Of a stretch of 61,145 nucleotides of DNA, positions 10,254-11,290 are shown in pieces (position 1 is the first letter of the stretch; every line of letters begins with the position of its first letter). Below the pieces are notes generated by a model. The model was not told the origin of the DNA. It searched no databases and saw only the letters and a program-made list of their open reading frames with translations. Location: UHGV virus genome UHGV-0030196, one strand, 5' to 3'. The translations under genes and the position numbers were made by a program. Source of the DNA: a virus.

Positions 10254-10877
10254 ATGAAGGATGGTGTAGTGAAGTTAAGGGTTTTAGGGGCCGCGCTCGC
10301 GGCTATGTTGGGATGCGTATCTGTTAATACTGCCAATGCAACTGCGTTACCTGCACAATTCAGGGCAGGGCAGCAGGTTATGAATAACGCTGGTGGAGAT
10401 CATTCACAAGCGGCAATTATGGACTTTTGCAAGAGGGAGGGCATTCCATTACGGCCTGTTGGAACTCAGTTTATTGGTAAAACTGACTTTTGCGTTTTTG
10501 CATATACAGCATATCTGACGGACAAAGCTATAACAAAAACAGGTTATTCAACCAAAGATACTCTTTCCAGATTAAGTCAGGGATGGCAGCAATTCGAAGT
10601 GTATCGCCAGCAAGGATTAGGTGAGTTATTGCAACCACTTTTTATGCTTGCGTTGGTGCCAGAGGGGCAGCAATTTTTGGTTAAAAAGGGAATGCTTCGC
10701 CAAAGTGATATTGCCGGGTTCGATAGCATGATGGCTTATGAGCGCAAACTAACCGAGCAGCGAAATAAAAAACCATCTGCTTCATGTGTGCAAAGTAAAA
10801 CAGCAGAATACAGTGCAGTAGCCGGGCCTTTAGCCAAACAAATGGCAGAGCAATGGTGTAAAAAATACGGGCAATAA
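10254..10877 (+). CDS. Secreted protein with signal peptide (207 aa)
   Basis: N-terminus LRVLGAALAAMLGCVSVNTANA-TA. Confidence 0.55.
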   Translation: MKDGVVKLRVLGAALAAMLGCVSVNTANATALPAQFRAGQQVMNNAGGDHSQAAIMDFCKREGIPLRPVGTQFIGKTDFCVFAYTAYLTDKAITKTGYSTKDTLSRLSQGWQQFEVYRQQGLGELLQPLFMLALVPEGQQFLVKKGMLRQSDIAGFDSMMAYERKLTEQRNKKPSASCVQSKTAEYSAVAGPLAKQMAEQWCKKYGQ

Positions 10878-10897
10878 GTTACGCAGCGGAGGCAGAA

Positions 10898-11290
10898 TTG
10901 AAAAGATTGGCTATTGCTTTACTGGCGTCTTTCCCTTTGATCGCGAGCGCCGGAAATTTACAAGTTAAGTGCGGTCGGTTTGATATAAAAATCTATCCGG
11001 ATGCCATATTTCTGAATGGGAATAAGGTTGATAACGCACACCGAAAAACTGAATCTGACGTAATGAGCTATGTGTTCCAGGAGTATGCGGAGATGGGGGG
11101 AACTTACACGCTGTACTCGCTGGATGTTCCTTCTCGCGGTGATATGACATTATCCCATCAATGGCAGAACTCCGATGGAGAAGCTCTGCGCGAGGTTAAA
11201 ACAGAAAAATGTGGCACTTTCCATTCTTTTAAAGGGAAAGCGCCAAATGTTAAATCTGTGCTTGAAAAACAGCGCACAGGTGAGCTTTAA
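10898..11290 (+). CDS. Secreted protein with signal peptide (130 aa)
   Basis: MKRLAIALLASFPLIASA-GN signal peptide; 20 nt after the upstream gene. Confidence 0.6.
   Translation: MKRLAIALLASFPLIASAGNLQVKCGRFDIKIYPDAIFLNGNKVDNAHRKTESDVMSYVFQEYAEMGGTYTLYSLDVPSRGDMTLSHQWQNSDGEALREVKTEKCGTFHSFKGKAPNVKSVLEKQRTGEL

Follow-up and report, generated by a model that had tools for sequence, protein, structure and literature searches.

What do two adjacent genes for small secreted proteins do for a phage-plasmid? The question is raised by positions 10254-11290 of UHGV virus genome UHGV-0030196, a DNA stretch of 61,145 nucleotides that was analyzed whole and that we call the window. Two open reading frames (ORFs), ORF1 (10254-10877, plus strand) and ORF2 (10898-11290, plus strand), lie there one behind the other, with 20 nt between the ORF1 stop and the ORF2 start. 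A preliminary description had seen in them a cassette with two signal peptides, had taken its setting for a phage-plasmid, and had suggested that such pairs serve exclusion or toxin-immunity. The setting was rightly recognized: the window is a D6-like (P1-family) phage-plasmid, and the ORF1-ORF2 region matches ~92-kb non-mobilizable plasmids of Salmonella and E. coli at 99.4-99.5% identity; the match of phage D6 to the region covers its leftmost 406 bases only. As to function, we tentatively propose, at a little under an even chance, that the cassette is a periplasmic superinfection-exclusion module that resembles Sim of phage P1 as an analogue and not as a homologue. The exclusion half of the earlier suggestion may thus stand, and what speaks for it is indirect genomic context, namely the allelism of the cassette with SimB-type genes in one slot and an ORF1-SimB operon near the C4 RNA and immI.

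Predicted export and relatives of ORF1 and ORF2

Export of both products is predicted computationally, by a rule-based Sec test, by conservation, and by the disorder of structure models. The test was passed by 7 of the 245 window ORFs of at least 60 amino acids (aa), with ORF1 and ORF2 adjacent among them. The signal peptide of ORF1 would be coded by 10254-10340 and read MK(DGVVK)LRVLGAALAAMLGCVSVNTANA, with cleavage before TALP, while that of ORF2 would be coded by 10898-10951 and read MKRLAIALLASFPLIASA, with cleavage before GNLQ. The small-x-small (A-x-A) cleavage site is kept among homologues, and disorder in the AlphaFold models is limited to residues 1-27 of ORF1 and 1-18 of ORF2. The claim of two adjacent signal-peptide genes is therefore borne out by three kinds of evidence. 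The remainder of ORF1 is modeled as an all-helical protein (pLDDT 83), and that of ORF2 as an eight-stranded antiparallel beta-rich protein at moderate confidence (pLDDT 70.6). The predicted mature forms measure 178 aa, 19.8 kDa and pI 9.3 for ORF1 and 112 aa, 12.7 kDa and pI 7.0 for ORF2, and neither has a transmembrane segment. Four cysteines are conserved in ORF1 (C59, C80, C178, and C202) and a pair in ORF2 (C25 and C105), as expected for periplasmic disulfides.

ORF1 has two possible starts, ATG 10254 for a protein of 207 aa and GTG 10269 for one of 202 aa, and a valid leader results from either. Since an AAGGA Shine-Dalgarno sequence lies at 10257-10261 and NCBI annotators chose this start, GTG 10269 appears the likelier one; ATG 10254 has no Shine-Dalgarno sequence. 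ORF2 is 130 aa long and starts with TTG, 5 nt behind a strong GGAGG Shine-Dalgarno sequence (10888-10892, plus strand) that we read from the sequence. We also considered ORF1 as a lipoprotein, given an 'LGC'/'MLGC' motif in its leader, and rejected this because homologues have Gly in place of Cys21 or lack the residue altogether, and retain the signal peptidase I site. The ORF2 leader contains no Cys. Elsewhere in the window, signal-peptide-like ORFs were seen at 14423-14833 (plus strand, 136 aa, MKKMIFVAALLTITQQAQA followed by S) and 21776-22204 (plus strand, 142 aa), and a 90-aa ORF at 23804-24076 (plus strand) is a possible lipoprotein (...AMLAMSG followed by C).

Searches for named relatives of these proteins gave little. 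Pfam, NCBIfam, and PADLOC contained no match to ORF1 or ORF2, tblastn with both proteins against 50,697 phage records returned none, and sequence-profile searches of the PDB with either protein came back empty. When the ORF2 model was compared with the PDB by Foldseek, we found only weak similarity to avidin, fatty-acid-binding protein (FABP), and VirK-like barrels (E at least 0.2, TM-score at most 0.44). Leaders are thus predicted for both proteins and neither has a named homologue, so that the preliminary description, which had treated a missing signal peptide or homology to a periplasmic housekeeping protein as grounds for giving up its view, keeps its footing. PHROGs placed both proteins over their full length, ORF1 in phrog_12786 (E 2.5e-134) and ORF2 in phrog_13864 (E 3.8e-89); both families are listed as 'unknown function' and show that the genes have already been seen in (pro)phage genomes.

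An exhaustive hidden Markov model (HMM) search of 1.84 billion proteins yielded 22 representatives of the ORF1 family, one of them spurious, and ORF2-like domains were absent from 185,579 species-representative genomes. Contigs of 85-105 kb from Escherichia, Salmonella, Shigella, Enterobacter, Citrobacter, and Vibrio account for most family members, and Proteus and Pantoea chromosomes contain a few more. ORF1 and ORF2 are new, tiny families confined to mobile elements and without detectable fold relatives. Fragments of the ORF2 3' end (window ~10949-11292), 95-344 bp long, 91-93% identical and unannotated, were also found in unrelated 77-129-kb E. coli plasmids (e.g., NZ_CP101916.1, 110307-110650); they may be recombination scars.

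A joint unit and its SimB-type alternatives

Natural fusions of the two genes bear on whether their products act together. Proteins P0024 (277 aa) and P0027 (281 aa) each consist of a single leader, an ORF1-like core, and then an ORF2-like domain, and these domains are 65% (E 3e-59) and 39% (E 7e-23) identical to mature ORF2. In an Enterobacter phage-plasmid, the fusion occupies the same slot, in the order gp25-gp26-mat, fusion, two small genes, ref, and IMG/VR locus L038 is another ORF1::ORF2 fusion. Of the 15 ORF2-bearing IMG/VR contigs, this one alone carries a fusion; in the other 14, ORF1 and ORF2 occupy the mat-(pmgF)-ref slot as two distinct genes. A RepL-type phage-plasmid of Vibrio parahaemolyticus (CP085859, 4900-5900) has a degraded pair, with an in-frame stop in the ORF1-like leader and a frameshift in the ORF2-like gene, and this pair appears to be decaying. 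The ORF2 gene was never met without ORF1; ORF1 also occurs alone. Judged from these Rosetta-stone fusions, ORF1 and ORF2 are predicted to be one functional unit, and the fusions together with the retained pairing favor joint action, in a complex or along one pathway, over a toxin-immunity pair.

The two genes evolve at different rates. Purifying selection was detected wherever synonymous change (dS) was measurable, with omega ~0.14 for ORF1 and ~0.10-0.12 for ORF2. Against divergent alleles, nonsynonymous change (dN) in ORF1 was about three times that in mat or gp26: dN between the window and contig L020 was 0.245 for ORF1, 0.081 for mat, and 0.042 for gp26, and between the window and E. fergusonii it was 0.341 for ORF1 against 0.107 for the neighbour compared. 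ORF2 is the slowest-evolving gene locally (dN 0.027-0.067). The C-terminal helical hairpin of ORF1 exists in two sequence types, and it is this part of ORF1 that is substituted in the fusions.

The slot between mat and pmgF holds ORF1 and ORF2, ORF1 and a SimB-type protein, or a SimB-type protein alone, as in D6. In D6 and many plasmids, mat is followed by orf79 and then by a minus-strand membrane protein gene, and the N-terminal domain of orf79 is 52% identical to P1 SimB (E 1e-25). DNA identity between the window and the D6/pEc1079_2 type stops at 10311, at about codon 19 of ORF1, and restarts at 11373, in the pmgF 3' end. To the left of this exchange breakpoint, the segment 10038-10311 (plus strand), which comprises the 5' control region and the first ~19 codons of ORF1, is 97-98% identical to D6-type plasmids that bear the other cassette. 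On three IMG/VR contigs (L051, L053, and L054), ORF1 is followed by a SimB-type gene, so that the downstream partner of ORF1 can be either ORF2 or the SimB-type protein. When the D6-type locus is aligned with L053, there is one clean ~594-bp gap, corresponding to the loss of ORF1 from about codon 19 onward. We conclude from this gap that D6 is an ORF1-deletion derivative and that ORF1 is dispensable for a viable phage. A simB swap in D6-like prophages has been mentioned in print, without analysis (PMC6799933).

The D6 cassette, orf79 ('similar to P1 simB') with orf80, therefore shares with ours the slot, the upstream region, and the first ~19 codons. It differs in that its SimB domain is fused to an unrelated ~160-aa C-terminal domain, with the minus-strand membrane protein alongside, and orf79, including the C-terminal domain, showed no similarity to ORF1 or ORF2 by blastp or hhalign. 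The orf79 start in GenBank D6 (MF356679, 6369-7265) is annotated at an upstream GTG and is probably mis-annotated (compare contig L006, 2501-3322). The first ~20 annotated residues (VKLMVLGTALAA...) are a relic of the lost ORF1 leader, and RefSeq relatives of orf79 begin MFFIKNGKRF..., with a signal peptide of their own.

The toxin-immunity half of the earlier suggestion fares poorly on this evidence. A secreted, bacteriocin-like pair, with ORF2 as the toxin and ORF1 as the immunity protein, would agree with the small size and predicted secretion of both products, and ORF1 is found alone when ORF2 never is, in the manner of orphan immunity genes. We nevertheless regard such a pair as very improbable. 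The natural fusions are single polypeptides with one leader, and Sec leaders on both proteins would bring the 'toxin' into the producer's own periplasm. Pfam, NCBIfam, and PADLOC revealed no signatures of toxins, immunity, lysis, or release. In addition, ORF1 is found just as readily with a SimB-type protein as its partner, and here the supposed toxin is highly conserved while the supposed immunity protein diverges fast, the opposite of co-varying pairs.

Context shared with the P1 sim operon

Sim is the processed form of SimC, a periplasmic protein that acts after adsorption and keeps superinfecting DNA out of the cell. Its post-adsorption action was reportedly worked out by Kliem and Dreiseikelmann in 1989 and by Maillou and Dreiseikelmann in 1990. 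To our knowledge, no mechanism has been established for P1 Sim since the 1980s, nor has a role been assigned to SimA or SimB. An account that cites this work likewise holds that P1 Sim stops superinfecting phages from delivering their DNA (PMC8546580).

A tie between ORF1 and this system was found in a P1-like element of Citrobacter that has a DarB-sized gene, KilA-N, and Rep3. Three secreted proteins are encoded there in one operon: one of 123 aa, a homologue of ORF1 (E 3e-12), and a full-length homologue of SimB (42% identity, E 7e-30). The isrK and C4 RNAs of immI follow ~150-250 nt beyond the end of this operon, and it is in this neighbourhood that sim lies in P1. On the 94.8-kb Citrobacter freundii contig L008, the 123-aa protein that opens the operon (5609-5980) has the leader MKKIISLGILCAAVSTGVSA followed by A, and it resembles neither SimA, SimC, ORF1, and ORF2 nor anything else tested. 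In most D6-like relatives (e.g., L007 and L053), the cassette adjoins the immI operon, C4-icd-rha/ant-pmgF.

In several respects, then, the cassette is like simA-simB-simC of P1. Both are small operons of Sec-exported proteins (as predicted here) on a P1-family phage-plasmid, both are non-essential, P1 sim and the cassette of most relatives lie near immI (c4-icd-ant), and homologues of ORF1 share operons with true SimB homologues. On the other hand, the P1 operon has three genes and ours two, neither ORF1 nor ORF2 resembles SimA, SimB, or SimC in sequence, profile, or fold, and P1 sim is divergent from c4, whereas the cassette is convergent at the distal end of immI, or unlinked to it in the window. 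It is because the profile comparisons with the three Sim proteins were negative that we speak of analogy and not of homology. Searches by tblastn with the P1 Sim proteins found no SimA, SimB, or SimC homologue in the closest complete plasmid or in the window, and a SimB HMM had no match in the six-frame translation of the window. With no Sim homologue on the closest complete plasmid, the cassette would be its only such module.

Other small extracytoplasmic proteins exclude phages by blocking DNA entry or receptor use, among them Imm and Sp of T4, Llp of T5, Cor of phi80 and N15, and Ltp of TP-J34. Ltp is helical, as is the ORF1 model. Llp, Cor, and Ltp are lipoproteins, however, and ORF1 and ORF2 are not, having no invariant lipobox Cys; T4 Imm is a membrane protein, unlike mature ORF1 and ORF2. 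No homology or PDB fold match linked ORF1 or ORF2 to Imm, Sp, Llp, Cor, or Ltp.

If the cassette acts as we propose, ORF1 and ORF2 would form a two-gene operon whose products leave the cytoplasm through Sec, lose their leaders to signal peptidase I, and probably acquire disulfide bonds in the periplasm. They would act jointly there, most likely as a heterodimer, and in the periplasm of the lysogen this unit would halt incoming P1/D6-like or other phages that have adsorbed but whose DNA is still outside the cytoplasm. Recognition would fall to the fast-evolving subunit, ORF1, and ORF2, or elsewhere a SimB-type protein, would be its conserved partner.

Several observations weigh against this proposal. 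The argument is guilt by association in two steps, from ORF1 to SimB and then from SimB to SimC, and the role of SimB in P1 is itself annotated only as 'putative accessory'. Direct comparison of ORF1 and ORF2 with SimA, SimB, and SimC gave a best blastp E of 0.38 and hhalign probabilities of at most 1.3%, and fold searches (ORF1 against the PDB and BFVD, ORF2 against the PDB) returned nothing with E below 0.2. The immI region of the window (C4 at 50509-50594, icd at 50279-50461) lies ~40 kb from the cassette, beside repL. A scan upstream of ORF1 found no consensus sigma-70 promoter, and the P1 C1 operator and P1 late-promoter box are both absent there. We also tried the idea, drawn from PMC6799933, that the cassette type co-varies with the Sit tape-measure/transglycosylase, and rejected it: the two Sit allele classes (~97-99% and ~89%) each occur with either cassette type. 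Lastly, ORF1 has some homologues that stand alone, on a virulence-type plasmid or on chromosomes without phage context.

These solo homologues bring in another explanation, that of a lysogenic-conversion 'moron', a periplasmic factor that helps the host envelope (resistance to lysozyme, serum, bacteriocins, or stress, or colonisation) and does not act on phages. On E. coli contigs of 168 and 94 kb (L010 and L011), an ORF1 homologue with 57% identity (6001-6606) stands on a plasmid rich in insertion sequences (IS), without an ORF2 or SimB partner and flanked by genes for an Ail/Lom-family outer-membrane protein and a large M60/SslE-like metallopeptidase, the latter two being of virulence type. 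More distant homologues occupy accessory positions in mobile elements, and these count in favor of the exclusion proposal. On a Proteus mirabilis contig (L019, 219-6021), a 158-aa homologue directly follows a phage-type integrase and precedes a Gabija-like pair of OLD-family nuclease and UvrD helicase, which is a defence-island context. Chromosomal or island-borne copies in Pantoea and Proteus would suit a moron, as would proteins that are predicted to be secreted, are soluble and restricted to mobile elements, and are dispensable, given that D6 does without ORF1. A moron would, however, leave the repeated operonic pairing with SimB-type proteins, the sim-type cassette allelism, and the linkage to immI and C4 without explanation, and ORF1 and ORF2 resemble no lysozyme inhibitor (Ivy, PliC/MliC, and PliG were without a Pfam or fold match) or other envelope-protection family. 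We therefore consider a moron unlikely.

The exclusion module that we favor may be extended to a combinatorial toolkit for periplasmic exclusion in P1/D6-like phage-plasmids. Here the helical ORF1, of a fold not seen before, would be a specificity subunit that docks on interchangeable conserved partners (ORF2, a SimB-type protein, or the fused domain) and blocks DNA injection by particular rivals, and the mat-pmgF slot would be a recombination hotspot that resets which phages are excluded. This larger picture is speculative and rather unlikely, though credible; if true, it would provide the first functional handle on SimB.

Layout of the slot and meaning for P1/D6-type phage-plasmids

The borders of the cassette were correctly described beforehand. 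To its left, and short of the mat start codon (9985), a scan and the sequence itself place an intrinsic terminator at 10010-10037 on the minus strand, with a 7-bp GC-rich stem (10019-10037), a 5-nt loop, and a T7 tail. To its right lies the convergent gene, at 11287-11598 on the minus strand, whose annotation reads 'transcriptional regulator' and whose product is homologous to P1 PmgF (37% identity, E 4e-10). Its 3' end and the ORF2 stop overlap by 4 nt, and the final ~29 codons of this pmgF-like gene (up to 11373) move with the cassette. Leftward transcription from immI or pmgF would cross the cassette antisense and end at the 10019-10037 terminator, and such read-through would explain why a terminator is placed upstream of mat. 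A strong hairpin of 13 bp that lacks a U-tract (11312-11342, -25 kcal/mol, z = -2.95) begins 22 nt past the ORF2 stop, in the pmgF 3' end and within the exchanged cassette segment; it may be the 3' end of the operon or a stabiliser. No operator-like site scoring at least 14/17 was found in the entire window, and the palindrome AGTGTCAACCACT at 10150-10162 is repeated no more than expected by chance.

This layout could also suit proteins that serve the lytic cycle of the phage itself from the periplasm, in such tasks as lysis timing, peptidoglycan remodelling at egress, or the blocking of progeny adsorption or injection into lysing cells. The genes on either side of the cassette are mat, for maturation control, and pmgF, with a 'putative morphogenetic function', and the minus-strand terminator and convergent arrangement suggest coupling to immI or late transcription. 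A lytic role seems improbable to us nonetheless. The holin and lysis genes are located elsewhere on the plasmid, the viable phage D6 has lost ORF1 and has no ORF2, the region upstream lacks a P1-type late-promoter box, and the sim-operon genes of P1 are non-essential for lytic growth (PMC10695390).

The arrangement of immI varies among relatives. In the window, C4, an a1b1 target element (50662-50714), icd, and repL are found together at 50279-50714 and 50878-51756 on the minus strand, and many relatives have a C4-icd-rha module between pmgF and ref instead. Compared with CP043746, the window is short of ~1.5 kb (rha-icd-C4-isrK) between 11647 and 11667. Farther from the cassette, Rfam calls mark a cluster of four tRNA genes at 36123-37381 (minus strand). 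The closest complete phage-plasmid, CP123702.1, has an annotated glutamine--tRNA ligase gene (glnS) at 49093-50754, an unusual cargo that adjoins the region matching the start of the window.

Should the cassette have no part in exclusion, it would be an ordinary pair of uncharacterised accessory genes. For the exclusion module that we propose, the kind of function is likely one already known from P1, and it is the protein families that are new. In E. coli, Salmonella, and Shigella, P1/D6-type phage-plasmids are common and carry resistance genes from strain to strain, and what governs their co-infection or displacement of one another is poorly known. If ORF1 and ORF2 are an exclusion module, the sim function would be built from interchangeable secreted parts, and two protein families without known fold relatives would be gained. 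The natural combinations of ORF1 with ORF2, ORF1 with a SimB-type protein, a SimB-type protein alone, and the fusion would then provide a simple genetic system for dissecting how phage DNA entry is blocked in the periplasm.

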